Virus record (IMG/VR): IMGVR_UViG_2844540631_000002
Coordinates: 1 to 64,000 of that record
Direction: 5' to 3' (one strand)
Source: a virus
Lineage: Duplodnaviria > Caudoviricetes
Length of the DNA: 64,000 nt
Notes under the pieces: generated by a model
Told to the model about the DNA's origin: nothing
Seen by the model: only the letters and a program-made list of their open reading frames with translations
Databases searched by the model: none
Position numbers and translations under genes: made by a program
Shown here: piece by piece, positions 37,287 through 50,845 of the stretch
How the letters are laid out: each line of letters opens with the position of its first letter
Numbering within the stretch: the first letter of the stretch is position 1

Positions 37287-37694
37287 CTAGTCGCCATTTT
37301 GGTCCTTCTTCCAAGCGTCGAAGAAAGCCCGGACATTAACGGATTGTGCCTGAATGGCCTGCATTAAGTCGAATGTCCCGCTAACCTGATGGAAAACATA
37401 TTCGGCATCATTGCTGTATTGTGACAACAGTGCAACGTCAATTCTTGATGTGGTGTACCATTCGTCAGTTTCGCCGAGATAGTCTCGATATGTAATTTCG
37501 TAAACGCCGATTCTCCAGGTTTTGAAATTTGTAGTATAGATACAGGGAGGGGGGATGAGGCTTTTCGTGCCAATTGAGTCCGGGACCTTGCCTCTCGTCC
37601 AAACGAGCTTCCCAGACAGCGTTTCGCGCGTCATGTCGGAAATGAATCGTACCGTCTCTGCTTCGGTCATTAGAGCTTTCCTCCTGCTTTCCAA
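37287..37694 (-). CDS. AT-rich hypothetical protein (moron, gene 2)
   Basis: 135 aa ORF in a low-GC island, overlapping the upstream TM gene. Confidence 0.75.
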   Translation of the reverse strand: MESRRKALMTEAETVRFISDMTRETLSGKLVWTRGKVPDSIGTKSLIPPPCIYTTNFKTWRIGVYEITYRDYLGETDEWYTTSRIDVALLSQYSNDAEYVFHQVSGTFDLMQAIQAQSVNVRAFFDAWKKDQNGD

Positions 37695-38257
37695 TCTTGC
37701 TCAAGGTTCTTCAAGTGAGTGGTTAGTTCGAGAGTTAGCACATGTAGTTCGTTGAAATATCCCTTGGATACAACCTCCTCCTTTTGTTGGATTTTCCTTA
37801 GGAGTATGTCCGCCGGTGTTTTTTGGTCGCCTGATAATTTCGCCATTGCACTCTGTGCGCTCATTTTTATTTGAGACATAACGAGGAGTGCGTCGATTTC
37901 GGCGGCTGGAAGATCCTGGGTCAGCCTGATGAGTTTGGACGCGTGTTCCTCAAGGTCCTTCCTGATTTTTGGTATTCTCTTAATCTTTAATAGGGATGTT
38001 TCGACGGAGTTTACCTTTGAGAGAGTTACGAACGTGACGACTATCGATAGAATCCCTAGTGCCAGTCCTCCTATGTCTGCGGTTTTGGCGAGAGTTGCCC
38101 AGCAGTCGTTGCTAGCGTCTGTGATTTCGGTTGCGGACGTGCGGTTTAGGTTCGAAACAGACGTCGACGTTGCTGTGCTTGTATCTGTGGATGATGGTCG
38201 GAGTAGGACGGTTTCCTTGGTGGTTGGTGCTGTGGTGTGAGTGTGTTGTGGTGGCAT
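37670..38257 (-). CDS. AT-rich single-pass membrane protein (moron, gene 1); start uncertain
   Basis: Thr/Ser-rich N-terminus, TM GGLALGILSIVVTFVTL, helical cytoplasmic C-terminus. Confidence 0.6.
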   Translation of the reverse strand: MPPQHTHTTAPTTKETVLLRPSSTDTSTATSTSVSNLNRTSATEITDASNDCWATLAKTADIGGLALGILSIVVTFVTLSKVNSVETSLLKIKRIPKIRKDLEEHASKLIRLTQDLPAAEIDALLVMSQIKMSAQSAMAKLSGDQKTPADILLRKIQQKEEVVSKGYFNELHVLTLELTTHLKNLEQDWKAGGKL

Positions 38258-39019
38258 TGTTTGCGGGGCGTTGAGCGCGGGGGGGGAGGCATCGTTTGAT
38301 GTTTGGGATATTGGGTGGGTGCAAGGGAGTTGTTGTCCTCCTGCGTGTGTCCATGTGTGGTCCGTCGGCGAGAATGGCCGTATTCGTCCCTTCGTAGTTG
38401 AAGACTTAAGCCAGTATACCGGACCACGGCCAATCCGAAGTTCGCGATTTTCGCTCTGTCGGCGTTGTGGTGGTTTGCGGGAGGGGCAGCGGATAAGGGG
38501 CTTAGGGCTTCCGATTCGAGTAGCGTTTGGTGCGTCGCGTTGGTTTGATGCATCGCTCCGCCGTGGGTTGTCAGTCTTGGTCATATATGACCCATGTCGA
38601 GCTATGGATGTTCGCTCTGTGTCGCATTGGAGGTGCGGAGGCCGGCACGCCTCCTGCTCTGCGACACCGCATCGAACCGGGCTCGCGTGGGGCTTCACCG
38701 GCGCGGCTTCGGCCCTCGGACGCCCAGTACCCGCCTTCCTTCGCTTCCCCGTTCCGGTGCTCGCTGCCGTGACTTTCCTGCATTGTGGTCCCACGGAGGA
38801 GGGCGACGGTCGCCTACCGCCGACCTTCTCGCGAGACGGGGGCTCCATGGGGGAAGGGGGCGGGACGCCTCCGGCGGACTCCGGTCGCACGTGTACACTG
38901 CGGAGCTCGGGCAAGTCCTGGGGGCCGGACGGCTGCGGCGGGATGTGCGGCTTCTTCCCGGCCAACTCTACATGCAACGCGGATGGGGCAAGCTACGGCT
39001 GTGCCGCTATGCTCAGAAG

Positions 39020-39748
39020 ATGAACTGGGAACGATACGAACAGGTAATCGTGGAAAAATTTCGACGCGATTATCCCGGTCCACACTTTCGGGTGGAGCCG
39101 TCTGGCGATCAGAAGCACAAGATCATGGGGTACAAGTCCGGAAAGCCGCGTCAGGTTGATGTTGCTGTTTTCAGGAGAGGGATGTGTGAACCATTCCTGG
39201 TGGTTGATGCAAAGTGCTGGAAATCTGCTTTGGATGTTAAGGATATTGAGTCGTTCATTGGCCTCGTGTCGGATGTGGGTGCCGAGGCCGGTGTTCTTGT
39301 TGCGAGTTCCGGTTTTTCAAAGGCGTCTCTGCGTCGGGTGGAAGAGCTTGGCATAACGCTGCAAGTCGTCGGAACGGATGAGGCGCTGGAGTGGGACTGG
39401 TTGGGAGTGGGGCGAAGAATCTATTCGAGTGATTGGGCATTTCATCGGGAGCTGGGACGCGCGCTTCGCTTGCTTGAGGACGGTGCGCACGCGGAAGTTG
39501 TTGCTGAGGTCTTGGAAAATGTTGGTTTTGATGAATGGGAGAATGCAGCCGGCTATGCAATAGATCGCCATAGAGATGAGGCGCTCATATTCTTGGAGTG
39601 GGTGGCGACACGCCATGACGACGCTGGGTGGCGATTCAATGCTGCTCGTCGCTTGGCGGAGAAGGGCTGCCTGTCGGACGTGATCCGAAGTCGAGCTGTG
39701 GCGCTTGAGGTAGATTCTGCTGCCCGAAAAGAGCTTGAGGAGATGTAA
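39020..39748 (+). CDS. Mrr-like (Mrr_cat) restriction endonuclease domain protein
   Basis: RQVDVAV...VVDAKCWK..LDVKDIESF...GVLVASSGFS; start at ATG 39020; lower GC. Confidence 0.8.
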   Translation: MNWERYEQVIVEKFRRDYPGPHFRVEPSGDQKHKIMGYKSGKPRQVDVAVFRRGMCEPFLVVDAKCWKSALDVKDIESFIGLVSDVGAEAGVLVASSGFSKASLRRVEELGITLQVVGTDEALEWDWLGVGRRIYSSDWAFHRELGRALRLLEDGAHAEVVAEVLENVGFDEWENAAGYAIDRHRDEALIFLEWVATRHDDAGWRFNAARRLAEKGCLSDVIRSRAVALEVDSAARKELEEM

Positions 39749-39828
39749 GTCGAGGCACATTGAAAGTGCCGACGGAGTCGACATCGCTGGTGCAGGACTC
39801 AGTCCACGCGCGCAGTGACAATTCCGCC

Positions 39829-40419
39829 ATGGAGCGATTCCCCTTCAAACCAAGCTGGGGTGCCCAGCTTGAGAGCCAGCCGCGGGTGAGGAAGGCCCAG
39901 TTCGGCGACGGCTACTCCCAGCGCTCGGAGGACGGGGCCCGTGGACTCCTCCAGCGCTGGTCCCTCCAGTTCACCGCGCGCCGGAAGTCCGAGGCGGACG
40001 CGCTTGACGCCTTCCTTCGAACTCACCGGGGCGTAGCGGCCTTCGAGTTCGTGGTGCCGGACAGCGCATGGGCCGTCACCGGCCAGGTGTTCGGCACCGG
40101 GGATGGCGCGCGGACGCAGTTCTCCTTGCTGCGCCCCCTTGCCCCGGACGCGACGGTGGGCGAGTTGGTGCCCGCCGTGGGGTGGGAGGCTGCGCCGCTC
40201 CTTTACCGCGACGGGGTGTTGCTGACGGTGGGGGCCGACTGCTCGCTGGCGCCCTCGGGGCTCGTCACGTTCGCGGTTGCGCCGTCCGCAGGCGCCCAGC
40301 TCACCTTCACTGCGGCCGGCGCCCAGGAGCTGCGCGTCGTCTGTGAGCGGTGGACGAGCACGCTGAAGGGCTTCAACGCCTACGACGTATCCGCCGAGTT
40401 TGATGAGGTGGCGGTGTGA
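39829..40419 (+). CDS. Minor tail protein M-like (distal tail) with inserted beta-sandwich domain
   Basis: PRVRKAQFGDGYSQR...W.L.F...DAFLRTHRG..AFEF; insertion FGTGDGARTQF...YRDGV...GLVTFAVAP. Confidence 0.85.
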   Translation: MERFPFKPSWGAQLESQPRVRKAQFGDGYSQRSEDGARGLLQRWSLQFTARRKSEADALDAFLRTHRGVAAFEFVVPDSAWAVTGQVFGTGDGARTQFSLLRPLAPDATVGELVPAVGWEAAPLLYRDGVLLTVGADCSLAPSGLVTFAVAPSAGAQLTFTAAGAQELRVVCERWTSTLKGFNAYDVSAEFDEVAV

Positions 40420-40436
40420 GCGTAGCTGCCCACGAT

Positions 40437-41603
40437 CTATGGCCCCGAGTCGGTTTCGCTTGGTGAAGGAGGAGGAGGGCCACTGCATGGCAGTGGGACA
40501 GTGAGTTCGGCTTGCCAGCGCTCGCGCGTTGCCGCCCACCTCAGTGTAACTTGTACCCTGATTTCGCGTGTCACCCAGTCCAGATTCAGCACAAGAACTG
40601 ACTCGACTCGTTCGACGAACCCAAGCTGGGCCTCCATTGTCTCCGTTCTTTCGCGTGCGGAGTGCATGTAGTTGATGGTCCGCACGGGTATGTTTACAAG
40701 TCGGGCCATGTCGAGAAGTAGCAAGCGCCCAAGCAGGACGAGGTCATCCCGATGGGCTTCTGCCAAATCTCGCCATCTTGAACCCCAGTCAGGGTGAAAC
40801 GTCGATGATTGGTATGGTTCTGACAGTATCGCCCAAATTCTCTGTTTGGCGTGGTCAAGCCCCTCGACGAGCGCAAGGTCACCATTCTCGACCACTAGAT
40901 CTCCATCGAGTAGTGCGAGATCGATGCCCAATTCTCGTGGGTCCGCTCGCTCATGCCGAGGAAGAACTGGAAGCACCACAACCATCCCCGAGCCGCGTGT
41001 ATCGGTTTTGTATTCCCACTCAGGTGTGCCGGTCAGCAGCCTCCCGTCCCCTTGCGACTCAACGGTGACGAAGCGCACATCGCCGGTGCCGCCTTCTATG
41101 AAATTTCGGAGCGCGGAATCATCACCAAGGATAAATCGCTTGATGCCAAACCTCCACCTGTCAATGCTCCCGCCAAGCCAGATGGCACTTACGACGATGT
41201 TGAAGCCGAAGGCTACGAGGGTCGTGGGCTCAAGTAGGGAATCGACTCCCGGCCCGACTAAGGACTCGTGTGCATCGCGCTCAGCCAGTGCTCTCCACTG
41301 TCGAAGGGTTTCGGCTGAATAGTTTAGGTGGTCTTTGTCAATGATGTCAGCGCAGTTGCTGCAGAGCCAAATGCCATTGCCGATGTTGATCCTTTGGTCT
41401 TTCGTGAGGCTGCTGTCGTAGCGGGGGCCATTTGGGGCTGCCGCAGTGATGTGGGCTGCTTCGCCAGCAGTAACAAATCCCAGGTTGTCGCCATTCTTAG
41501 GTCCAATTGTAGGCCGGCGACATTGGGGCGCAGAGCATCGCCAAGCCACTCTTGATGCAAGAGCACGTATTGTCGTCGATGAAAATTCGTCTCGAGCCGC
41601 CAT
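40437..41603 (-). CDS. HNH-type nuclease domain fused to a C-terminal gp25/DUF2634 baseplate-wedge-like domain
   Basis: N-term RDEFS...LASRVAWRCS.P.C...GEAAHI.AA...GPRYD...NGIWLCSNC..IIDKD; C-term DLALLDGDL...GDLALVEGLDHAKQRI...FHPDWGS; SD GGAGG before ATG 41603. Confidence 0.7.
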   Translation of the reverse strand: MAARDEFSSTTIRALASRVAWRCSAPQCRRPTIGPKNGDNLGFVTAGEAAHITAAAPNGPRYDSSLTKDQRINIGNGIWLCSNCADIIDKDHLNYSAETLRQWRALAERDAHESLVGPGVDSLLEPTTLVAFGFNIVVSAIWLGGSIDRWRFGIKRFILGDDSALRNFIEGGTGDVRFVTVESQGDGRLLTGTPEWEYKTDTRGSGMVVVLPVLPRHERADPRELGIDLALLDGDLVVENGDLALVEGLDHAKQRIWAILSEPYQSSTFHPDWGSRWRDLAEAHRDDLVLLGRLLLLDMARLVNIPVRTINYMHSARERTETMEAQLGFVERVESVLVLNLDWVTREIRVQVTLRWAATRERWQAELTVPLPCSGPPPPSPSETDSGP

Positions 41604-41806
41604 CGTTCGCCGTCCTCCACTGAGTATGGTAGCGTACCGCATCGCTAGGCCAATGCCGTCGCTTAATGCAGGAACACCCCTTCGGACGGTGTCCTCCGCG
41701 TATGTGAAGACGGAGGCATGCTCTGCCGTCTATCTGTTCTTGTCGCGCGGTACCTCGCCTACGTCCTGCCCATGGTCGTCCACCTCACGTGCGAAGTAGC
41801 TGGCCT

Positions 41807-42502
41807 GTGAGCATCGCCGAGGACCTTCAGAAGCTGGAGCCGGGCGCCCTCGTGGAGCTCTTCGTGCTGGATGCCACGGCGCTGCCCGGCGGCGGCATCA
41901 GCTACTTCCACGCGGGCACCAACGGACTGGGCGGGCCGGTGGTGTGGCAGGGCGCGGAGTACCAGCCCTGGCCCGTGGAGGCGCGGGGCTTCGAGAAATC
42001 CGGCACGGGGCGCCTGCCTCGGCCCACGCTTACCATGGCCAACGTGGCGGGCACCATCGGCGCCCTGGCCCGGGACTTCAACGACTTGCTGGGCGCGCGC
42101 GTCCTGCGCAAGCGCACCTTCGCGCGCTACCTCGACGCGGTGAACTTCCCCGGCGGCGTCAACCCCACCGCCAGCCCGGTGGAGGCATTCCCCGATGACG
42201 AGTTCGTGGTGGACCAGAAGACGTCCGAGTCGAAGCACTTCATTGAGTTCGCGCTCGCGGCGCGGTGTGACTTGGACGGCATCCGCATCCCGCTGCGCGT
42301 CATCACGCAGATGTGCGGGTGGGAGTACCGGAAGGAGGGGTGTGGGTACGCGGGCCCGCCTGTGGCGAAGGTGGACGACAGCCCGACGACGTCGCCAGCG
42401 GAGGACAGGTGCGGGAAGCGGCTGGGGAGCTGCACGCTGCGCTTCGGGGAGACGGGAGTGTTACCGTTCGGGGGCTTTCCTGGCTGTGGACTTCTCAGGT
42501 AG
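41807..42502 (+). CDS. Minor tail protein L-like
   Basis: VELFVLD...WQGAEYQPWP.EARGFE...RPTLT.AN...C.W.YR...CGY.G...D.CGKRL..C.LRFG...FGGFPG. Confidence 0.92.
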   Translation: MSIAEDLQKLEPGALVELFVLDATALPGGGISYFHAGTNGLGGPVVWQGAEYQPWPVEARGFEKSGTGRLPRPTLTMANVAGTIGALARDFNDLLGARVLRKRTFARYLDAVNFPGGVNPTASPVEAFPDDEFVVDQKTSESKHFIEFALAARCDLDGIRIPLRVITQMCGWEYRKEGCGYAGPPVAKVDDSPTTSPAEDRCGKRLGSCTLRFGETGVLPFGGFPGCGLLR

Positions 42503-42517
42503 CGAAGGAGGAATGAG

Positions 42518-43138
42518 GTGCCTTGCAAGCTTGACCTCACGGGCCAGACATTCGGACGCCTCACGGTGCTGGAAGAGGCTCCGAAGAAGGGGAAAGAGTC
42601 GGCTTGGCGGTGTCGCTGTGTCTGCGGCACCGAGACGATTGTGGCGGTCGGCAAGTTGAGGGGTGGCACTACCGCATCGTGTGGATGCATCCGTCAGGAG
42701 CGACTCGCCGAGCGGAATCGCACGCACGGCTTGACGGGGACTCCGACACATCGGAGTTGGAAGGCGATGTTGTCGCGATGCACGAACCCCAAATATCCTG
42801 GGTTCCAGAAGTACGGGGCCCGCGGCATCACCGTCTGTTCGCGTTGGCGCTCATTCGAGAACTTCCTTGTGGACATGGGGGAGCGTCCACCCGGGAAGAC
42901 GCTCGACCGCATCGACAACAACGGCCCTTACTCGCCAGAGAACTGTCGCTGGGCGAGTCTCCGAGAACAGAGTCTGAACAAGCGTTCCAACCGACGCATC
43001 ACCATGGATGGGATGACGTTGACCCTTTTGGAGTGGTGCGAGCGCCTCAATCGAAAGCGGGCAACGGTCTATGACCGACTCCGGCTGGGATGGTCCATTG
43101 AGCGGGCCCTGACTGAGCCGGTGAGTGGCGGCAGTTGA
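42518..43138 (+). CDS. Phage HNH homing-endonuclease-like protein
   Basis: [12 protein letters not shown]...WRCRCVCG...SCGC...[18 protein letters not shown]...[17 protein letters not shown]. Confidence 0.88.
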
Positions 43139-43191
43139 TGGTGCTGCCGTGCACCAATCCAGCCGTGAGAGCGAGGCAGGTGCCCGATTGC

Positions 43192-43980
43192 TTAGGTGGC
43201 ACTCGCCGCTTTTGCCGCCATGGCCGATGGCGATGAAGGCTGGATCGCAATGTTGCGCACTTCATAGGTAATACCTTGTTGAGATGGAATCGTTGGAGTG
43301 GGAATCAAGAAGTCCGTGGATACGAGCACTAGATATCGATACGTAGCTAGTTCGAAGCCGGCGAGTGTCTCCCCAGAGTATCTCTCGGCCTGGACATGTG
43401 CTTCCCTTGCCTTTTTAATGGGAGCATCGCCCGCGCGTACGACTTTCCACTCGGTAAGGACCATTGCGTCAGCTACTTGTGCGGCTTCACGTTCGATTAG
43501 GGCCTGCCCCAAGACGAGGTCGGTCTTGCCGCCTGTTGAGTTTGCCTTGAATGCCCAGATGCTGTGAAGAAGCATGTGAACAGCCCCGAGCTTCTCGCAC
43601 GCTTCTTCAGCGCGGGCTTCCTGAAGCGCGCGCATCCACTTCGTCTGGATATCGACGTCAGCAACAAGGCTTCGTTGTAGGTGTGTAAACGCGCGATCTA
43701 CTGCCCGGCGCGCCCGTGCATTCTTGTCAGTCAAGAAATAGTCAACTTGCGCACGAACGGTGCTGAGGCGACATGCCATATGAAATACGCCCTCCGCGCT
43801 TGTTGAGCCGGAGCCTTGGAACTCCATGTCTGCATCAGCCGCGCAGATGAAGTTGTCGAGAGCTTCCTGGGCGCCCGGGTGCAGGTGAGATTTGAATTGT
43901 GTGTTGAACTGCTTTAGGAGTGCGTATAGGTCTCTGAGTTCATGTTTCGCAGTTTTGTTGAGCGTAGCTGTGCTCGACAT
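43192..43980 (-). CDS. Hypothetical protein with C-terminal PD-(D/E)xK-like nuclease motif (moron)
   Basis: KTDLV...LTEWK...QAERY; lower GC, antisense. Confidence 0.65.
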   Translation of the reverse strand: MSSTATLNKTAKHELRDLYALLKQFNTQFKSHLHPGAQEALDNFICAADADMEFQGSGSTSAEGVFHMACRLSTVRAQVDYFLTDKNARARRAVDRAFTHLQRSLVADVDIQTKWMRALQEARAEEACEKLGAVHMLLHSIWAFKANSTGGKTDLVLGQALIEREAAQVADAMVLTEWKVVRAGDAPIKKAREAHVQAERYSGETLAGFELATYRYLVLVSTDFLIPTPTIPSQQGITYEVRNIAIQPSSPSAMAAKAASAT

Positions 43981-44181
43981 GAGCGCCGAACCGTTCGCGA
44001 AGAAGCGTAGTAGATCCAGTGTGGCGGACAGGCGAGCTGACCATGACTTCCATTCATCATTCCAAATCAGATGCGGCCTCGCTGAGTTGTCTGCTTTAGC
44101 TGTTTAGTCGGAGTTTCGGCCAGGGCGTTTGTTCTGAGAACGAGCAAGCGGACCTGCGTGGGCTTGCTCCGGTGAGCGCGC

Positions 44182-44526
44182 TCAGGCGGCAGGCACGTGG
44201 ACGCCCTGGATGGGAGCTTCTGCCGGGTGGCTCGCCTTCAAGTAGCGGATGTACCAGAGCGCGGCGCCGACGATGAAGCGCTCGGTGGGCATGCCCAGGT
44301 GATGCGCCGTGGACACCGCCGTTGCGTACTCAGCCTCGCCCATCTCCGTCTTCATCGTCATGGAGAGGGGCTTGATCGCGGCGGTGCGGGCGGCAACAGG
44401 CAGGCCCCCACAGTCCACCGAGGCGTGCTCGATCAAGCGGGCGGGCGTGAGCCCCGTCAGGCTCGCGGCGGCCAGGATGGCGGCGGCCTCCTCGGGCATG
44501 GCTGGCAGGGAGAGAGACACAGGCAT
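44182..44526 (-). CDS. Small hypothetical protein (possible tandem RHH-like regulator)
   Basis: Two similar halves (AAASLTGLTPARLIEHA / STAHHLGMPTERFIVGA); start at ATG 44526 inferred. Confidence 0.5.
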   Translation of the reverse strand: MPVSLSLPAMPEEAAAILAAASLTGLTPARLIEHASVDCGGLPVAARTAAIKPLSMTMKTEMGEAEYATAVSTAHHLGMPTERFIVGAALWYIRYLKASHPAEAPIQGVHVPAA

Positions 44527-44632
44527 GAGGTAGTCCTTTCCGGAGTGGAAGCAGGGAGCCTCGGCGCCGCGAGAGAATCGGTCAAGGTTTGACGGTGCGG
44601 AAGCAGTCCACCCTGGCCAGCAGAGTTGGGGG

Positions 44633-45364
44633 ATGGACCCCTCTGGCCTGTCGTCGCTGGTGGATGTCGTCATCGAATCCGCTCGGGCCCACGCTCGAAT
44701 TGAGTACCCACGCGAGTCGTGCGGCCTCGTGGTGCTTGTGAATGGCATGCCACAGTACGTCGCGTGCCGTAATCAGGCCGAGGGGCAGGCCCACTTCATC
44801 CTCCACCCGGAGGACTACGCGCGGGCGGAGGCGGAAGGGGAGGTGGTGGCGGTGGTGCACTCCCACCCCAACGCGGCCCCGGAGCCGAGCGAGGCGGACC
44901 GCGTCAGCATGGAGCGCTGGGGCCTGCCCTGGCTCATCGTCAACGTGCCCGTGGGCCACTGGCGGCTGTGGCACCCCACCGGGTACCGGCCGCCGCTGGT
45001 GGGCCGCCCCTTCAGCCACGGCGTCCTGGACTGCTTCTCCCTCATTCGCGACTACTACCAGGAGCGGCTGGGACTCGAGCTGCCCGACTTCCACCGGCCG
45101 GACGGCTGGTGGGACAAGGGCGGCAACCTCTACCTGGACGGGTACGCCGAGGCGGGCTTCGTGGACGTCACCGGCCAGGCGCTGCGCGAGCATGACGTGC
45201 TCCTCATGCAGCTGCGCGCGCCGGTGCCCAACCACGCGGGCGTCTACCTGGGGGCGGACGTCGTCCTCCACCACCTCCAGAATCGCCTCTCTGGAAGGGA
45301 GACGTACTCGGGCTTCTGGGAGCGAATCACCCGGAAGGTCGTCCGACACCGCACCCTATGCTGA
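44633..45364 (+). CDS. Tail assembly protein K-like (JAB + NlpC/P60)
   Basis: ESCGLV...VHSHP...PSEAD JAMM motif; LDCFSLIRDYY...NHAGVYLG..HH NlpC. Confidence 0.92.
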   Translation: MDPSGLSSLVDVVIESARAHARIEYPRESCGLVVLVNGMPQYVACRNQAEGQAHFILHPEDYARAEAEGEVVAVVHSHPNAAPEPSEADRVSMERWGLPWLIVNVPVGHWRLWHPTGYRPPLVGRPFSHGVLDCFSLIRDYYQERLGLELPDFHRPDGWWDKGGNLYLDGYAEAGFVDVTGQALREHDVLLMQLRAPVPNHAGVYLGADVVLHHLQNRLSGRETYSGFWERITRKVVRHRTLC

Positions 45365-46431
45365 CAACGGTGGTACTCGGAGGGCCGCTGGGCCGGCACT
45401 TCGGCCGCGTCTGGCGGTTGGACTTGAGCGTGCCTTCGCCCGCCGAGGCCGTGCGCGCCCTCTCGGCGGTGTGCGAGGGCTTCGCGCGGTATCTGGTGGA
45501 GCACAGCGAGCCGGGCTTCCACGTCTTCGTCGGCAAGCGCGACGTGGGCCAGGACGAACTGGCGCGCCCGGCTGACGCGCCCGTCATCACCGTCATTCCG
45601 GCCCTGGCCGGGGCGAAGGTGGGCGTCTTCCAGGTGGTGATGGGGGCCGTGCTCATCGCAGGCGGCGCGGTGCTCTCGGCCTACGGCTTCGGTGTGGGTA
45701 CGCCCCTCATCACCATGGGCGCATCCCTGGTGGTGGGCGGTGTCTCGCAGATGCTCTTCGCGCCGCCCGCACCTGCGGCCCCGGACGAGGAGCCGAAGAA
45801 CAAGCCCAACTACGCCTTCAACGGGCCGGTGAACACGCTGGCGCAGGGCCACCCGGTGCCCATCTGCTACGGCGAGCTGGAGGTGGGCAGCTGCGTCATC
45901 TCCGCGGGCATTGTCACCGAGTGGAGCGAGGGCGGCGGCTTCGGTGGCAAGTACGGCAGCGGGCAGACGGGGCCGGGCGGGCAGGGACCCTCGGGCGGTG
46001 GGTGTCCGGCACCATGGGTGCCCATTCTCCTTGCGGACGGGCGGGAGGTGCCCGCCGGCGAGGTGGAGGTGGGCATGCGCGTCCTCACCCAGCACGAGAC
46101 GACGCTGCGGTGGGGCGCGTACCTCGTCACCGACGTGGCCCTCTTGGAGGCGGAGTGCTGGCGGTTGGAGCTGGAGGACGGCCGCGCCTTCGTGGGCACG
46201 TACAACCACCGCGTGCGCACCGAGGCGGACTGGGTGGAGCTGCGGCACCTAGTGCCCGGCACGCTGCTGCTGGGCGCCCAGCCCGGCGTGGTGCGGGAGG
46301 TGGTGGCGTGCGGACGTGGGCCGGTGGTGCGCATCACCGTGGACGGGGCGCACACGTACCAGACGCTGAGCTTCCTCTCGCACAACGCCAAGCGCGCAGA
46401 CCCGGAGGCACCGCATGAAGTCGAAATCTGA
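45358..46431 (+). CDS. Tail assembly protein I-like (ubiquitin-like) fused to a C-terminal Hint domain
   Basis: LGGPLGRHFGR...VIPALAGAK; NYAFNGPVNT.AQG.PVP..YG; then GGG|CPAP...LADG...GTYNHRV...SHN. Confidence 0.88.
   Translation: MLTTVVLGGPLGRHFGRVWRLDLSVPSPAEAVRALSAVCEGFARYLVEHSEPGFHVFVGKRDVGQDELARPADAPVITVIPALAGAKVGVFQVVMGAVLIAGGAVLSAYGFGVGTPLITMGASLVVGGVSQMLFAPPAPAAPDEEPKNKPNYAFNGPVNTLAQGHPVPICYGELEVGSCVISAGIVTEWSEGGGFGGKYGSGQTGPGGQGPSGGGCPAPWVPILLADGREVPAGEVEVGMRVLTQHETTLRWGAYLVTDVALLEAECWRLELEDGRAFVGTYNHRVRTEADWVELRHLVPGTLLLGAQPGVVREVVACGRGPVVRITVDGAHTYQTLSFLSHNAKRADPEAPHEVEI
46003..46386 (+). other. Hint (intein/BIL-like) autoprocessing domain
   Basis: Cys1 at 46003; block B-like TYNH; terminal His-Asn at 46381-46386 followed by Ala. 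Confidence 0.8.
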
Positions 46432-48931
46432 GCTGGGCCCCGTCATCGGCTACGGCGGGGCGAATGGGGGCAAGGGCGGTGGCGGCGCGCAGCGCACGCC
46501 CGTGGAGCTCCCGGACACGCTGAAGTCCACCAACTACGCCCGCGTGCTGGACTTGCTCTGCGAGGGGGAAATCGTCGGGCTCGTGGACAAGCTGAAGTCC
46601 GTCTACCTGGACGGCGTCGTCGTCCAGAATCCCAACGACACCTACAACTTCCGCGACGTCACCCTCTACGACGTGCAGGGGACGCAGGGGCAGGAGTACA
46701 TCCCTGGCTTTCCCTCCGCGGAGGCGGAGTTCTCCGTCAACACGGAGGTGAAGCGCTACGAGCCCGTCGTCCGCACCGTCAGCGACGCCAACGTGGACGC
46801 GGTGCGCATCACCGTGCAGGTGCCGCAGCTCACCTTCCAGAGTGCGCTCACCGGCGACTTGATGCCGTCCATGGTGCTCATCGGCATCGACGTGCAGAGC
46901 AACGGCGGCGGCTTCGTTGAGCAGGACCTGGAGGGAGCGGGTGTCATCGCCGGCAAGTGCACCAGCCCCTACGAGCGGACGTACCGTGTGGAGCTCACCG
47001 GCAGCGCGCCGTGGGACATCCGCGTGCGGCGCCTCACCGCGGACAGCACGCAGGCCAACCTGCAGAACAAGACGCTGTGGAAGTCCTACGCCACCCTCAT
47101 CGACGAGAAGCTCAGCTACCCCAACAGCGCGCTGGTCGCCCTCCAGGTGTCCGCGCACCAGTTTCAGGCGGTGCCCACGCGCTCGTACCGGATTCGGGGC
47201 CTGAAGGTGCGGGTGCCCAGCAACTACAACCCGCTGACGCGGGAGTACTCGGGCACGTGGGACGGCACCTTCAAGGTGGAGTGGACGGACAACCCTGCGT
47301 GGTGCTTCTACGACTTGCTGACGACGCGGCGCTACGGCCTGGGCCGCTTCCTCAACGAGGGGCACGTCGACAAATGGGGCCTGTACACCATCGGCCGCTA
47401 CTGCGACGAGTTGGTACCGGACGGGAAGGGCGGCCAGGAGCCGCGCTTCCGCTGCAACCTCTACCTCCAGTCGCAGGCGGACGCGTACCAGGTGGTGAAC
47501 AACCTCGCCTCCGTCTTCCGAGGCATGACGTACTGGGCCAGCGGCGCGGTGTACGTCGCCCAGGACGCGCCCCGGGACGCCGAGTACCTCTTCACCCCGG
47601 CCAACGTGGTGGACGGCCTCTTCACGTACTCCAGCAGCGGCCGGCGTGCGCGCCACACCGTCGCGCTCGTCACCTGGAACGACCCGGCCAACCACTACAA
47701 GTCCGCGAAGGAGTACGTGACGGACGAGGACGGCCTGCGCGAGTACGGCTACAACCCCACCGAGGTGGTGGCGCTGGGCTGCACCTCGCGCGGCCAGGCG
47801 CAGCGGGTGGGCCGGTGGCTCCTCTTCACCGAGCGGCTGGAGACGGAGACGGTGGTGTTCCGGACGGGCCTCGAGGGCGCCCTGCGCAACCCCGGCGCGG
47901 TGGTGAAGCTTCAGGACCCGTACCGGGCCGGCCGCCGCTGGGGTGGGCGGGTGGTGGCCGCCACCGCCACCCAGGTAGAGCTGGACGCGGACGTCACCCT
48001 TGAGGCGGGGAAGACGTACTCCCTCTCCGTGGTGATGCCGGACGGGGCGGCGGTGGAGCGCGAGCTGGCGCCCGCGGCGCCGGCGCCGTACCGGGCCCTC
48101 ACCGTCGCCACGCCCTTCCCCGTGGCGCCCGCCCGGAATGCCGTCTGGGTGCTCGCGGCGTCCGACTTGGCGCCCACGACGTGGCGCATTCTCAGCGTGG
48201 CCGAGGTGGAGCCGCACCTCTACGAAGTCACGGCGCTGCGCCACCACCCGGGCAAGTACGACGAGGTGGAGCTCGGCGTGAAGCTGCAGCCGGTGCCCAC
48301 CTCCGTGCTGCCTTCCTCGGCGCCACCCGCGGACCTCGTGCTGGGGGAGAGCCTCTACAAGACGACGAATGGCGGGTTGAAGGTGTCCCTCAACGCCCGG
48401 TGGGCGCAGCGCCCCAGCGCCACCGAGTACGTGGTGCGCTGGCGGGTGGACGGGGGCAACTGGACGACGGTGACGGGGGTGCAGTCGCACTTCTGGGAGT
48501 TGCTGGACATCAACCCCGGCGCGTACTCCGTGCAGGTGGCGGCCGTCCTCAACGGCTTCGTCACCGCCTATTCCGAGGCCTCCCTCAACGTGCGAGGCAA
48601 GCTGGCGCCACCCTCGGACGTCGTGGGCTTCGGCTACACACTCAACGGCAACACGGCCACGCTGCGGTGGACGGAAATCCCGGACCTGGACCGGGACACC
48701 TACGAGCTGCGCTACGGCGGGACGAATTGGGACAACGCCACCCCCATCTCGAAGGTGCGCGCCACCGCGCACGAATGGCCCGTGCCTGGGCCTGCGGACC
48801 ACGTCGTGCGCGTGAAGGCCATCGACACCACGGGCAATCCCTCCACCAACGACACCACCGTCACCGTCCGCGCGGCGCCCACTACGCCCGCGTCCGTCAC
48901 CATGACGGTGTCCTCCACCCCTCCGCCGTAG
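46415..48931 (+). CDS. Host specificity / tail tip protein J-like
   Basis: DLLCEGEI.GL...TDNPAWCFYDLLT..RYGLG...EPRF.CN.Y; FN3 repeats at the C-terminus. Confidence 0.93.
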   Translation: MKSKSELGPVIGYGGANGGKGGGGAQRTPVELPDTLKSTNYARVLDLLCEGEIVGLVDKLKSVYLDGVVVQNPNDTYNFRDVTLYDVQGTQGQEYIPGFPSAEAEFSVNTEVKRYEPVVRTVSDANVDAVRITVQVPQLTFQSALTGDLMPSMVLIGIDVQSNGGGFVEQDLEGAGVIAGKCTSPYERTYRVELTGSAPWDIRVRRLTADSTQANLQNKTLWKSYATLIDEKLSYPNSALVALQVSAHQFQAVPTRSYRIRGLKVRVPSNYNPLTREYSGTWDGTFKVEWTDNPAWCFYDLLTTRRYGLGRFLNEGHVDKWGLYTIGRYCDELVPDGKGGQEPRFRCNLYLQSQADAYQVVNNLASVFRGMTYWASGAVYVAQDAPRDAEYLFTPANVVDGLFTYSSSGRRARHTVALVTWNDPANHYKSAKEYVTDEDGLREYGYNPTEVVALGCTSRGQAQRVGRWLLFTERLETETVVFRTGLEGALRNPGAVVKLQDPYRAGRRWGGRVVAATATQVELDADVTLEAGKTYSLSVVMPDGAAVERELAPAAPAPYRALTVATPFPVAPARNAVWVLAASDLAPTTWRILSVAEVEPHLYEVTALRHHPGKYDEVELGVKLQPVPTSVLPSSAPPADLVLGESLYKTTNGGLKVSLNARWAQRPSATEYVVRWRVDGGNWTTVTGVQSHFWELLDINPGAYSVQVAAVLNGFVTAYSEASLNVRGKLAPPSDVVGFGYTLNGNTATLRWTEIPDLDRDTYELRYGGTNWDNATPISKVRATAHEWPVPGPADHVVRVKAIDTTGNPSTNDTTVTVRAAPTTPASVTMTVSSTPPP

Positions 48932-48940
48932 AGAGAAAGC

Positions 48941-50845
48941 ATGCGCTCACGCGAAAAAGAGCTTCAGGGCGGCATCGACGTGGACGTCACGCCGGGCGAG
49001 CCGAACCCCCGTCTCCTCAAGCCGCGGTACTTCGACATTCGCTGGGAGCACGTCGAGACGCTGCCCACGCACCTCCTGCTGGGCTTCAGCGTGGCCGTCT
49101 ACGAAGGGGATGACCCCAACAACACGGACGCCTACCTCCTGGAGCCAGTGCGCGTCGGCCCCTCGGAGCGCCGCACAGTGGTGTCGCTGCGCGTGGCCAC
49201 CACGGTGGAGGTGAAGTGCGCCGTCCAGGCCCTGTACTCCAACGGCACGCAGAGCAGCTGGCGCGTCCTCGGTGGCGCGGTGGCGGCGGACCCGGACATG
49301 GTGAAGCTGGCCACCGCAGACTTGAAGAATGTCCCCGCCGCGGCCGCGCAGGCGGCGTCCCGGAATGCCGTGGGCGCCTTCACCGAGTCCTTCGAGCGCT
49401 CGCCCTTCGACTTGGGCAACTGGGAGCGCAACCCATTGCTGGCACCGCCGGCAGTGTCCCTCGTCTCCGGCCAGGGCTATTCCGGGGGCAACGCCCTGCG
49501 GTGCACCAACGCCGTGTGGATTTACTCCACAGTGAAGCTGCCGTACGACCCGTCGAAGCTGTACCGCCTGCGCTGCCGCGTGCGTCAGTTTCAGGAGCCC
49601 ACGTCCGGCGGGAAGGCGGTGTACTGCGGATTGGTGGGCTGGGCGGCGGACGGCGTCACCATGGTGAACGCGGCCGGCCTCAACGACTTGGGCAGCCAGC
49701 ACTACTACTGCATCTCCGGCGCGCTGCTGCCGGCGTCCACCGGCTATAGCGAATTCACCGGCTGGGTGAAGGGACTGTCCGCCAACGTCACGGAGAACTG
49801 GCCCTCGCAGGACCCGCGCAACCCCCGGCCCATGCACCAGGCCACGCGCTACGTGTCCCTGGTGCTCATCGCCAACCTGGACGCCGGCAACGGCGTGACG
49901 GACTTCGACTCCGCAGTGGTGGACGTCTTCGACGAGTCGGCCACCCCGCGCGTGTACACGGCTCTCAACCCGGACGGGAGCATCAGCTACAACGTGGGCA
50001 TCTCCGATGGGAGTGGGGCGCCGCGTACCATTGCGAAGGGCCGCCAGGCGCAGCTCGCCGCGCACGGGGCCTATGTGGCCTTCAACCCGCCGTTTCAGAA
50101 CACGCCCATGGTGCTTCTGCGCGGTGGCCTCACGCACGAGCCGCGGGCGAAGTGGGGGGCCACGGGCAGCGGAAACGAGACGGGGGCCTACAACGCGGCC
50201 CTGCCGACGTATGACGACACCCAGGCGATTATGAATGGGGGCAGCGGCTTCACCCTGCGCGCTCGACTGCGCCAGCGCGGCGGCACCGTCACGGCCCGGA
50301 CGAACAACCCCGCCAGCTCGTCCAACCTCGCCACCGGCATCGGCTCCACGGTGGAGGTGGTGCTCAGCAACGCCCCGGCGACGAACGACCAGTACGCGCT
50401 CCGTTTCAACGCCATCATCTACCTGCTCACGCCGCCGCGCACGGGGGACCTGGGGGCGGGTGGGAGCTGGGAGCCGGGGTCGGCCGTGGGCAGCATCGTC
50501 GTAGCGCTGGACAGCCTGGACGTGGGGCAGTCCTGGGTGGAGCGCGCCACGGTCACGCTCTGGGCCAACTCCAACAACAACACAGTGAACTGGGTGCAGT
50601 CCGTGAACACGCACATCGGGGAGGTACTGACGGCGGCGGCGCCGGGCCTGGGCGCGGCGGACAGGCTGCGCCTGCGCATCAAGTCCGTGTCCGTGCCGAC
50701 GGGCAGCAACCAGCCCACCGCGCACGTCTGGCACTCCAGCGTGGATGCTGGGGCGGGCGTCACCTACAGCACCTCGACGGACCAGTACGCCTCGAAGACG
50801 CCGGACGTTGGGGACGTGCTCTACTGGGAGGCCTTGGACGCATGA
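48941..50845 (+). CDS. Tail fibre / receptor-binding protein
   Basis: FN3-like start, carbohydrate-binding-like PYDPSKLYRLRCRVRQ module, beta-rich C-terminus; follows J. Confidence 0.75.
   Translation: MRSREKELQGGIDVDVTPGEPNPRLLKPRYFDIRWEHVETLPTHLLLGFSVAVYEGDDPNNTDAYLLEPVRVGPSERRTVVSLRVATTVEVKCAVQALYSNGTQSSWRVLGGAVAADPDMVKLATADLKNVPAAAAQAASRNAVGAFTESFERSPFDLGNWERNPLLAPPAVSLVSGQGYSGGNALRCTNAVWIYSTVKLPYDPSKLYRLRCRVRQFQEPTSGGKAVYCGLVGWAADGVTMVNAAGLNDLGSQHYYCISGALLPASTGYSEFTGWVKGLSANVTENWPSQDPRNPRPMHQATRYVSLVLIANLDAGNGVTDFDSAVVDVFDESATPRVYTALNPDGSISYNVGISDGSGAPRTIAKGRQAQLAAHGAYVAFNPPFQNTPMVLLRGGLTHEPRAKWGATGSGNETGAYNAALPTYDDTQAIMNGGSGFTLRARLRQRGGTVTARTNNPASSSNLATGIGSTVEVVLSNAPATNDQYALRFNAIIYLLTPPRTGDLGAGGSWEPGSAVGSIVVALDSLDVGQSWVERATVTLWANSNNNTVNWVQSVNTHIGEVLTAAAPGLGAADRLRLRIKSVSVPTGSNQPTAHVWHSSVDAGAGVTYSTSTDQYASKTPDVGDVLYWEALDA

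Follow-up and report, generated by a model that had tools for sequence, protein, structure and literature searches.

A-type BIL and PT-HINT domains (2LWY, from C. thermocellum) combine the Hint fold with an N-terminal Cys, a block B His and a terminal His-Asn, have no nucleophile at +1, and lie in variable regions of non-housekeeping proteins, secreted bacterial toxins or adhesins, ahead of the toxin domain. The relevant passages of a review (PMC7765530, citing Amitai 2003 and Dassa 2004) include the conserved C-terminal His-Asn in the definition of the A-type and describe these domains as able to cleave but not to ligate. BIL2 of the eukaryotic polyubiquitin locus BUBL (6Y75/6TMM) is flanked by ubiquitin-like (Ubl) domains, the one before it ending directly at the BIL junction, and provides, in the part of PMC8616854 devoted to it, a published precedent for E1/E2-free conjugation by a BIL domain. 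Mini-inteins of class 1 (Npu/Ssp DnaB, gp41-1, Mtu RecA) need a Cys, Ser or Thr at +1 for trans-esterification and splicing, and they interrupt housekeeping proteins at conserved sites, the host protein being restored when they splice. The Hedgehog Hog domain (1AT0) is a C-terminal Hint domain that is not known to carry the terminal His-Asn; it frees the functional protein at its N-terminal side by way of a thioester, which a nucleophile other than water can resolve. A sterol-recognition region follows it, as described in the corresponding passage of PMC7765530.

The protein studied here is a homologue of lambda gpI, the plug protein of the tail tip (223 aa; 8IYK, 8XCG), which, like most of its homologues, stops soon after a conserved motif and has no Hint domain. 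Lambda-type tail-tip assembly is a classic model, and we know of no Hint or thioester step described in it. The lambda genes stand in the order L, K, I, J, and the same order is found in the Myxococcus-type prophage that we analysed in a window of 64,000 nucleotides (the whole stretch of DNA under study). The features that matter here are as follows.

44633..45364, + strand: gpK homologue (Prok-JAB and NlpC/P60), context gene; PF14464 E 1e-15, PF00877 E 9e-13
45358..45612, + strand: N-terminal β-grasp of gpI (MoaD/SAMP type), residues 1-85; PF06805, AF2, Foldseek
45619..45756, + strand: hydrophobic helical hairpin, residues 88-133; AF2 helices 89-108 and 114-133
45805..45936, + strand: conserved gpI C-terminal region, residues 150-193; phrog_32 alignment, PDB profile matches, homologue C-termini
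45937..46002, + strand: Gly-rich linker, residues 194-215, with G-G-G up to -1; sequence, pLDDT <50
46003..46386, + strand: Hint domain (BIL / PT-HINT-like), residues 216-343; AF2, Foldseek, profile, invariant residues
46387..46431, + strand: C-terminal tail, residues 344-357 and stop, overlapping the gpJ start; alignments
46415..48931, + strand: gpJ homologue (central tail fibre / tip attachment protein), context gene; PF24801 E 1e-38, PF13550 E 4e-26

The frame at 45358..46431 is open on the + strand and encodes 357 aa, in the order gpI homologue (residues 2-188), flexible Gly-rich linker (about 22 residues), Hint domain (C216-N343) and 14-residue tail. At the N-terminal junction the codons are ggg for G215 (46000-46002) and tgt for C216 (46003-46005). 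T-Y-N-H spans residues 281-284, the last base of S341-H342-N343 is 46386, and the tail opens with A344 (gcc at 46387), K345 and 12 further residues. All coordinates given in an earlier note, made from the sequence alone, agree with the sequence. Both neighbours are translationally coupled to the gene, which overlaps the gpK stop by 7 nt and the gpJ start by 17 nt.

The earlier reading of a complete gpI ahead of the linker holds. The match to phrog_32 (E 6e-54) runs over model positions 4-198 of 203, residues 2-188 thus representing nearly the entire gpI family model; PF06805 is matched by residues 5-86 (E 4e-6, 27.5 bits, cutoff 23.8), the profile search of the PDB retrieves 25vf_9 and lambda gpI 8iyk_I, and the N-terminal 190 residues are homologous to lambda gpI over their full length. 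The gpK homologue lies upstream, with the JAB domain known from gpK, and the gpJ homologue downstream. AF2 models a β-grasp over residues 1-81 (pLDDT 92), for which Foldseek returns MoaD, SAMP1, Urm1 and ubiquitin with TM up to 0.75 (0.72-0.75 for MoaD/SAMP-like folds), at E values of only about 1e-2. An alignment of 46 gpI homologues shows P81 and G85 to be invariant, and P81...G85 is the ubiquitin-tail-equivalent position of this β-grasp. The helical hairpin corresponds to helices H1/H2 described in lambda gpI (PMC11101478), and the equivalent of residues 150-193 in lambda is the plug with the gpJ-binding β-strands, which pack on gpJ domains (PMC10721106, PMC11101478). The lambda strands pass through gaps in gpJ and do not end deep in the lumen, and the tube opens as the gpI plug loosens and drops (PMC11101478).

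In the 120 homologues whose C-termini we surveyed, canonical gpI ends 3-4 residues past an S-A-G-I-x-x-E motif, and the unfused proteins have no counterpart of the 14-residue C-extein. Close unfused relatives continue for about 16 residues beyond the conserved motif and the predicted cleaved product for about 27, so that such a product would look like them. A survey for gpI-Hint fusions, as the earlier note had proposed, detected the domain on no more than 14 of these 120 best relatives. Several gpI homologues of other kinds end in folded extensions that are permanent, either an Ig-like He_PIG domain (P0188) or 100-200 additional residues (P0178, P0193, P0213), so that removal would answer no steric need. 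The argument that a domain of 14 kDa cannot fit on gpI is rejected in view of these permanently extended homologues, together with the threading of the lambda strands.

That a Hint domain follows gpI is borne out by fold, profile and catalytic residues alike, with matches well outside what chance would give. Residues 216-343 are modelled by AF2 with pLDDT 87-95, and Foldseek matches this model, with probability 1.00, to mini-inteins, Tetrahymena BIL2, the C. thermocellum BIL and Hedgehog (E 7e-12 to 1e-7, TM 0.73-0.87 normalised to target; 4o1r at E 7e-12, 6y75 at 2e-11, 2lwy at 9e-9, 1at0 at 1e-7). The NpuDnaB intein matches at E 7e-12 with TM 0.83, and its T-G-N-H is aligned with T281-Y-N-H284 in the profile alignment. 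In the PDB the Hint family profile picks up both inteins and BIL domains (E 7e-13 to 2e-8). The profile search envisaged at the outset thus succeeded for the family but not for the query, whose Hint region (C-terminal 143 or 161 residues) had zero Pfam matches even at E 10. Against NCBIfam the query gave nothing above threshold and only intein-containing models below it, and the best hit of a single-sequence phmmer search against the PDB was a DnaX mini-intein (E 0.2); the profile and fold searches take the place of the Pfam and phmmer results. PT-HINT (PF07591) is matched at E up to 1e-3 by 29 of 74 homologues, a link that is transitive only for the query, and Intein_splicing by 13 of the 74.

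C216, H284, H342, N343 and K345 are invariant in the 14 gpI-Hint orthologues, which share 47-78% identity, a degree of divergence at which such invariance points to selection on the chemistry; the position of T281 holds T, S or A. The domain is apparently catalytically competent, as predicted from these residues. The position of the block F Asp of class 1 inteins is R325 here and Lys or Arg family-wide, and catalytic details may therefore differ.

We place this Hint domain with the A-type BIL / PT-HINT domains and not with canonical splicing inteins, in line with the earlier note. It has an intact Cys1, the T-x-x-H block and an invariant terminal H342-N343, and lacks a +1 nucleophile (A344 is non-nucleophilic), a combination shared with the A-type BIL / PT-HINT group, although the query scores below PT-HINT, has no significant match to PF07591 and carries Arg or Lys, in its family, at the block F Asp. 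The C. thermocellum BIL is matched at E 2e-8 by profile and E 9e-9 by fold (TM 0.81). The host differs, being a phage tail-tip protein and not a toxin or adhesin, and the domain stands at the extreme C-terminus with only its 14-residue tail behind it, although both it and the A-type BILs occupy variable regions of non-housekeeping proteins. Class 1 mini-inteins give the best fold and profile matches (TM 0.83-0.87) and share blocks A, B and G; unlike them, the gpI domain has no Cys, Ser or Thr at +1, no homing endonuclease, no block F Asp and nearly no C-extein, and it comes after the natural gpI C-terminus instead of within a conserved site of a housekeeping protein. Hedgehog resembles it in having a C-terminal Hint domain, but the gpI Hint retains the His-Asn and only a short Lys-bearing tail follows. 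BUBL BIL2 is a close structural match (E 2e-11) and has, as here, a Ubl-containing protein upstream, but it belongs to a eukaryotic polyubiquitin locus and not to a phage structural gene, and identity is only 19-20%.

The comparison with ubiquitin had been carried further in the earlier note, which saw the Gly-Gly before Cys1 as the end of a ubiquitin-like protein, and here the data speak against it. The β-grasp stops near G85, and 130 residues that include the hydrophobic hairpin and the plug region separate it from the junction at 215/216, so that a thioester would not be formed on the Ubl C-terminus; in BUBL the Ubl ends right at the junction. Nor is Gly-Gly at the junction a shared feature, as the -1 residue in 149 family members is G in 43 (29%), T in 30, S in 24, A in 17 and Y in 14, while the gpI fusions have G, T, S, H or M there; at least three Gly are found among the five residues preceding Cys1 in 76 of the 149.

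With at least 613 clusters at 50% identity the family is a large one, and its Hint domains mainly cap the extreme C-terminus of tail proteins, among them gpJ-type tip proteins, fibres, spikes, gpI and proteins of unknown family, a range of hosts showing that neither gpI nor the gpK JAB domain has the cap as a dedicated partner. Cys1 is kept in 148 of 149 members, whereas a nucleophile (C, S or T) is found at +1 in only 9; the +1 residue is mainly K, V, A, I or L. Lys occupies +1 or +2 in 143 members, while the tail positions beside it vary, and the shortest tails are 2 residues. We do not know of this near-universal Lys as a reported BIL feature. Ten residues or fewer follow the Asn in 80 of the 149 instances; in about a quarter of the members the domain is followed by over 100 residues, and these proteins would be cut in half unless they were re-ligated.

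The Hint domain most likely removes itself from gpI after translation, a reading that we consider probable. Cys216 would attack the G215-C216 bond and an N-S acyl shift would give a thioester, cyclisation of Asn343 would cut the bond to A344, and the thioester would be resolved by water or by an amine of the tail, either that of the K345 side chain or the one of A344 set free by the cut. The 128-residue Hint would be lost, and the mature gpI that joins the tail tip would comprise residues 1-215, either alone or with the 14-residue tail re-attached. Self-removal is supported by the fact that gpI is already complete before the linker; the C-terminal placement with short tails fits a removable cap, as does the repetition of these junctions in a second Hint lineage on further gpI homologues. 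Cleavage, the fate of the thioester and the purpose of the domain we infer from sequence and predicted fold; hydrolysis or Lys-directed re-attachment of the tail is the most likely resolution, and the cap may act as an assembly aid or timer that is later removed, or be just a tolerated mobile cassette.

One variant of self-removal, with a different product, is cis splicing directed by Lys, in which the K345 side chain or the A344 amine would attack the G215 thioester and re-join the tail to gpI; we hold it to be possible though unlikely. It would explain why Lys is kept at +1 or +2 amid variable neighbours and why the Asn is invariant, which N-terminal cleavage alone does not need, and it would spare the members with long C-terminal extensions from being severed. 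Tetrahymena BIL2 splices through a C-extein Lys with an isopeptide bond, as the pertinent section of PMC8616854 has it, and the conserved Lys here would permit the same chemistry. The review quoted above (PMC7765530), in its passages on A-type BILs, has them cleaving without ligation; moreover, K345 could be structural, or the passenger of a recombining cassette, and model confidence falls right after it (pLDDT <50 from residue 346). The near-universal Asn and Lys after the domain are hard to account for by removal through hydrolysis only. By analogy with BIL2, one might speculate, with similar reserve, that the cap serves as a ligase-free coupling device, its thioester being captured by the flanking Lys, or by one on an adjacent virion protein, to form an isopeptide bond. 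Were this true, BIL2-type isopeptide chemistry would be a maturation step of phage tails.

It is improbable that the Hint domain stays unprocessed, as a permanent decoration or as the decaying, non-functional remnant of a mobile cassette. The permanent C-terminal domains of other gpI homologues are compatible with such a fate, one relative (P0161) has a frameshift within the Hint, and the closest prophages vary in whether their fibre carries the cap; nevertheless, catalytic residues that are invariant in the 14 orthologues and kept in the wider family would be unexpected in a non-catalytic or decaying domain. Least probable of all is an E1/E2-free transfer of gpI in trans, as a step of tail-tip assembly or infection, whether onto a second virion protein or a small molecule, as envisaged in the earlier note, or onto a nucleophile of the host envelope, for although Hedgehog and BIL2 thioesters are resolved by outside nucleophiles, BIL2 joins ubl4 to other substrates (both in the pertinent section of PMC8616854) and the contact of lambda gpI strands with gpJ would put acceptor residues nearby (PMC10721106, PMC11101478), the Ubl lies 130 residues from the junction, Gly at -1 is not conserved, the same cap occurs on unrelated tail proteins with no evident conserved acceptor, and a covalent gpI-gpJ lock would, by inference, fit poorly with plug release in lambda (PMC11101478).

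Should the cap prove active, intein-like chemistry would be the route by which a whole class of tail-tip proteins (gpI, gpJ-type, fibres) matures in prophages and uncultured phages. The conserved Lys makes isopeptide formation by a BIL domain, which is rarely documented, directly testable in a simple bacterial system, and small Cys...His-Asn|x-Lys modules could serve protein engineering. In keyword searches of the literature we came across no paper that describes tail proteins of phages with Hint or BIL domains, and the scarcity of these domains in a single-sequence search of deposited phage genomes may explain this lack of study: tblastn against about 50,700 such genomes gave no match at E 1e-5, which is weak evidence of absence given the limited sensitivity of a single sequence, and at E 1 one metagenomic record and classical terminase and UvsX inteins.

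A search for a second Hint copy in the window and the provirus record found none, whereas the relatives L002-L004 have a copy on the fibre gene. As the fibres of the window and L001 end in a different C-terminal region, the comparison of capped with uncapped fibres is not informative on the mature end. A tree of 153 Hint domains, built to see whether the cap reached gpI once or several times, requires 7 changes, but its well-supported branches force only 1, and many branches are long. A second, highly divergent Hint lineage is found on other gpI homologues, P0234 and P0235, and has the same junctions, G-G-G|C ... H-H-N|(L)K.

The reading frame at 45358..46431 (+) is open over 357 aa in translation of the window sequence, and gpI is complete within its first 193 residues. 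Residues 2-188 cover model positions 4-198 of 203 in phrog_32 (E 6e-54), PF06805 matches residues 5-86, and the family profile matches the solved gpI-type proteins PDB 25vf_9 and lambda gpI 8iyk_I. In a survey of homologue C-termini, canonical gpI proteins stop 3-4 residues beyond the motif S-A-G-I-x-x-E, and the natural gpI end here is therefore at about residue 190. Tails of 20-40 residues, often Gly-rich, are found in many gpI homologues, and other C-terminal domains in a few, e.g. the Ig-like He_PIG of P0188. Such other additions, 100-200 residues long, were observed on the homologues P0188, P0178, P0193 and P0213; the gpI C-terminus is thus a place where extra domains attach in general. 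The gene's start overlaps the preceding stop by 7 nt and its end overlaps the next gene's start by 17 nt; it thus belongs, intact, to an operon with translational coupling.

The domain C-terminal to gpI is a Hint domain, as its relatives and its structure indicate. The raw sequence agrees with the earlier note on every coordinate for Cys1, T-Y-N-H, S-H-N and the +1 Ala:

46000-46002, +, G215
46003-46005, +, C216 (Cys1)
+, block T281-Y-N-H284
ending at 46386, +, S341-H342-N343
after 46386, +, A344, K345 and 12 further residues, then the stop codon

Pfam gave no match to the query alone, even at E 10, and elsewhere the query had only sub-threshold intein matches. HMMER, run in full over 1.84 billion cluster representatives, returned 613 clusters at E <=1e-3 (308 at E <=1e-10), and among 74 relatives scanned PT-HINT was matched by 29, Intein_splicing by 13, Hom_end_hint by 3, Hint by 2 and Hint_2 by 1. 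Against PDB sequences, a profile built from 60 relatives matched 8w20 ("intein C-terminal splicing domain-containing protein", E 7e-13), the NpuDnaB (E 6e-12) and gp41-1 (E 2e-9) inteins, and the C. thermocellum BIL domain 2lwy (E 2e-8). The AF2 model (pLDDT 87-95 over residues 216-343) matched in Foldseek the mini-inteins 4o1r (E 7e-12, TM 0.83) and gp41-1 (TM 0.85-0.87), Tetrahymena BUBL BIL2 6y75 (E 2e-11), 2lwy (E 9e-9) and Hedgehog 1at0 (E 1e-7). In alignment with the NpuDnaB intein, C216 takes position 1, T281/H284 fall on block B T-x-x-H and H342-N343 on the terminal H-N, whereas the block F Asp is replaced by R325.

C216, H284, H342, N343 and K345 are invariant in 14 gpI-Hint proteins at 47-78% identity. 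Over the 149 domain instances used for family counts, position 1 is Cys in 148, C, S or T occupies +1 in only 9, and Lys stands at +1 or +2 in 143; the -1 residue varies (G 43, T 30, S 24, A 17, Y 14). No more than 10 residues follow the Asn in 80 instances, and more than 100 in 38. The sub-type H-N|x-K is mostly terminal (median 7 residues beyond Asn), and H-N|K mostly internal (median 144). Some proteins have tandem copies: two were seen in P0012, P0015, P0020, P0034, P0036, P0062, P0079 and P0085, in some spaced by only 4-6 residues, as in H-N|K-L-D-S|C of P0015.

The Hint on gpI is most likely a self-processing cap: its chemistry is intact, no nucleophile stands at +1, the Gly linker is flexible, and the structural protein that precedes it is complete. 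The 128-residue domain would be removed by two steps, cyclisation of Asn343 and, at the G215|C216 bond, an N-S acyl shift, and hydrolysis would be the simplest route to resolve the thioester. Intact Hint chemistry without a +1 nucleophile also supports the earlier proposal of a BIL-type domain rather than a splicing intein. Asn and Lys are near-universal, however, and persist where the tail has only 2-5 residues, which suggests a role for the Lys and for the C-terminal step. In Tetrahymena BIL2, section 2.4 of PMC8616854 describes use of a C-extein lysine and formation of an isopeptide bond. A-type BILs cleave and do not ligate, according to a review (PMC7765530). The analysis turned up nothing in favour of trans-ligation of the gpI thioester to another molecule, which is at most an unlikely possibility.

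The earlier note had further likened the released gpI to ubiquitin, with a Gly-Gly thioester that could be conjugated without E1/E2. Modelled separately by AF2, residues 1-88 form a β-grasp (pLDDT 92) closest to MoaD, SAMP1, Urm1 and ubiquitin (TM up to 0.75); E is only ~1e-2, yet the match list is ubiquitin-like throughout. In 46 gpI homologues, P81 and G85 never vary. The final strand is at residues 76-81, and hydrophobic helices follow in the model at 89-108 and 114-133, the counterparts of H1/H2 of lambda gpI, whose C-terminal part is a trimeric plug with strands threading gaps between gpJ hub domains (PMC10721106, PMC11101478). The analogy is unsupported, since the β-grasp ends ~130 residues short of the Hint junction, conservation of Gly at -1 is lacking, and the cap is present on many proteins without a Ubl domain.

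The fold and chemistry are of a known kind, BIL / PT-HINT. What is new is the place of this Hint, capping the ends of phage tail-tip proteins (gpI included), and its conserved Lys. A literature keyword search found no description of such a cap, and tblastn against ~50,700 deposited phage genomes gave essentially no matches to the Hint. Its hosts are gpJ-type (Phage-tail_3, phrog_31), Rcc01698-like tip and Mtd-like proteins, tail fibres, spikes and gpI. It is carried by 14 of the 120 best gpI relatives, and the fusions come mainly from myxobacterial prophages, a few being metagenomic. A far more divergent Hint with the same junction logic, G-G-G|C ... H-H-N|(L)K, is borne by the gpI homologues P0234 and P0235 (G-G-G|C-V-x-x-D ... 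H-H-N|L-K or H-H-N|K); Pfam did not match this cap, and the query matched it at E 7e-4 or not at all. The tree of Hint domains does not fix the number of acquisitions by gpI. In three related myxobacterial prophages the fibre gene, 4.6 kb downstream and after gpJ, likewise ends in Hint:

L002:9543-11696, Hint-capped fibre gene
L003:9426-11687, Hint-capped fibre gene
L004:8812-11694, Hint-capped fibre gene

These ends run from poly-Gly through a Hint ~50% identical to that of gpI to H-N|(A/I)-K-x-x-x. In the window and its closest relative, L001, the fibre lacks Hint and its end differs from these three. P0008, P0009 and P0013 carry the same Hint, at 57-60% identity, behind a non-gpI N-terminal part of 235 residues; of the two scanned, P0008 had no Pfam match and P0013 matched neither Pfam nor PHROG. 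The unfused gpI homologues P0177, P0180, P0182, P0184 and P0264 end in poly-Gly then (S/A)-P-P-W-H, which resembles the G-G-G-G|C-P-A-P-W junction of Hint-bearing forms; the ending may be what a lost Hint left behind, or a coincidence. A frameshift falls within the Hint of the close gpI-Hint relative P0161 (74% identical over gpI); either this copy is decaying or the assembly is wrong there.

The window lies in a 78-kb IMG/VR provirus record of 65-73% G+C, whose nearest named relatives are prophages of Myxococcus sp. Y35 (92% identity), Pyxidicoccus caerfyrddinensis, Corallococcus carmarthensis and Myxococcus eversor. Its tail-tip module is lambda-like:

39760-40416, gpM-like
41789-42499, gpL
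44633-45364, gpK (JAB + NlpC/P60)
45358-46431, +, gpI-Hint
46415-48931, gpJ
48941-50845, fibre gene

Lower-G+C genes, among them an HNH endonuclease at 42518-43138 (phrog_374, E 4e-76) and a gene at 40437-41642 (-) for a 400-aa protein with weak baseplate-like matches, are interspersed among the tail genes: some 7 kb at 37300-44600, set among TMP, gpM-like, gpL and gpK, have a G+C of 0.59-0.62 against ~0.69, and the majority of the ORFs there are antisense or without a PHROG match.
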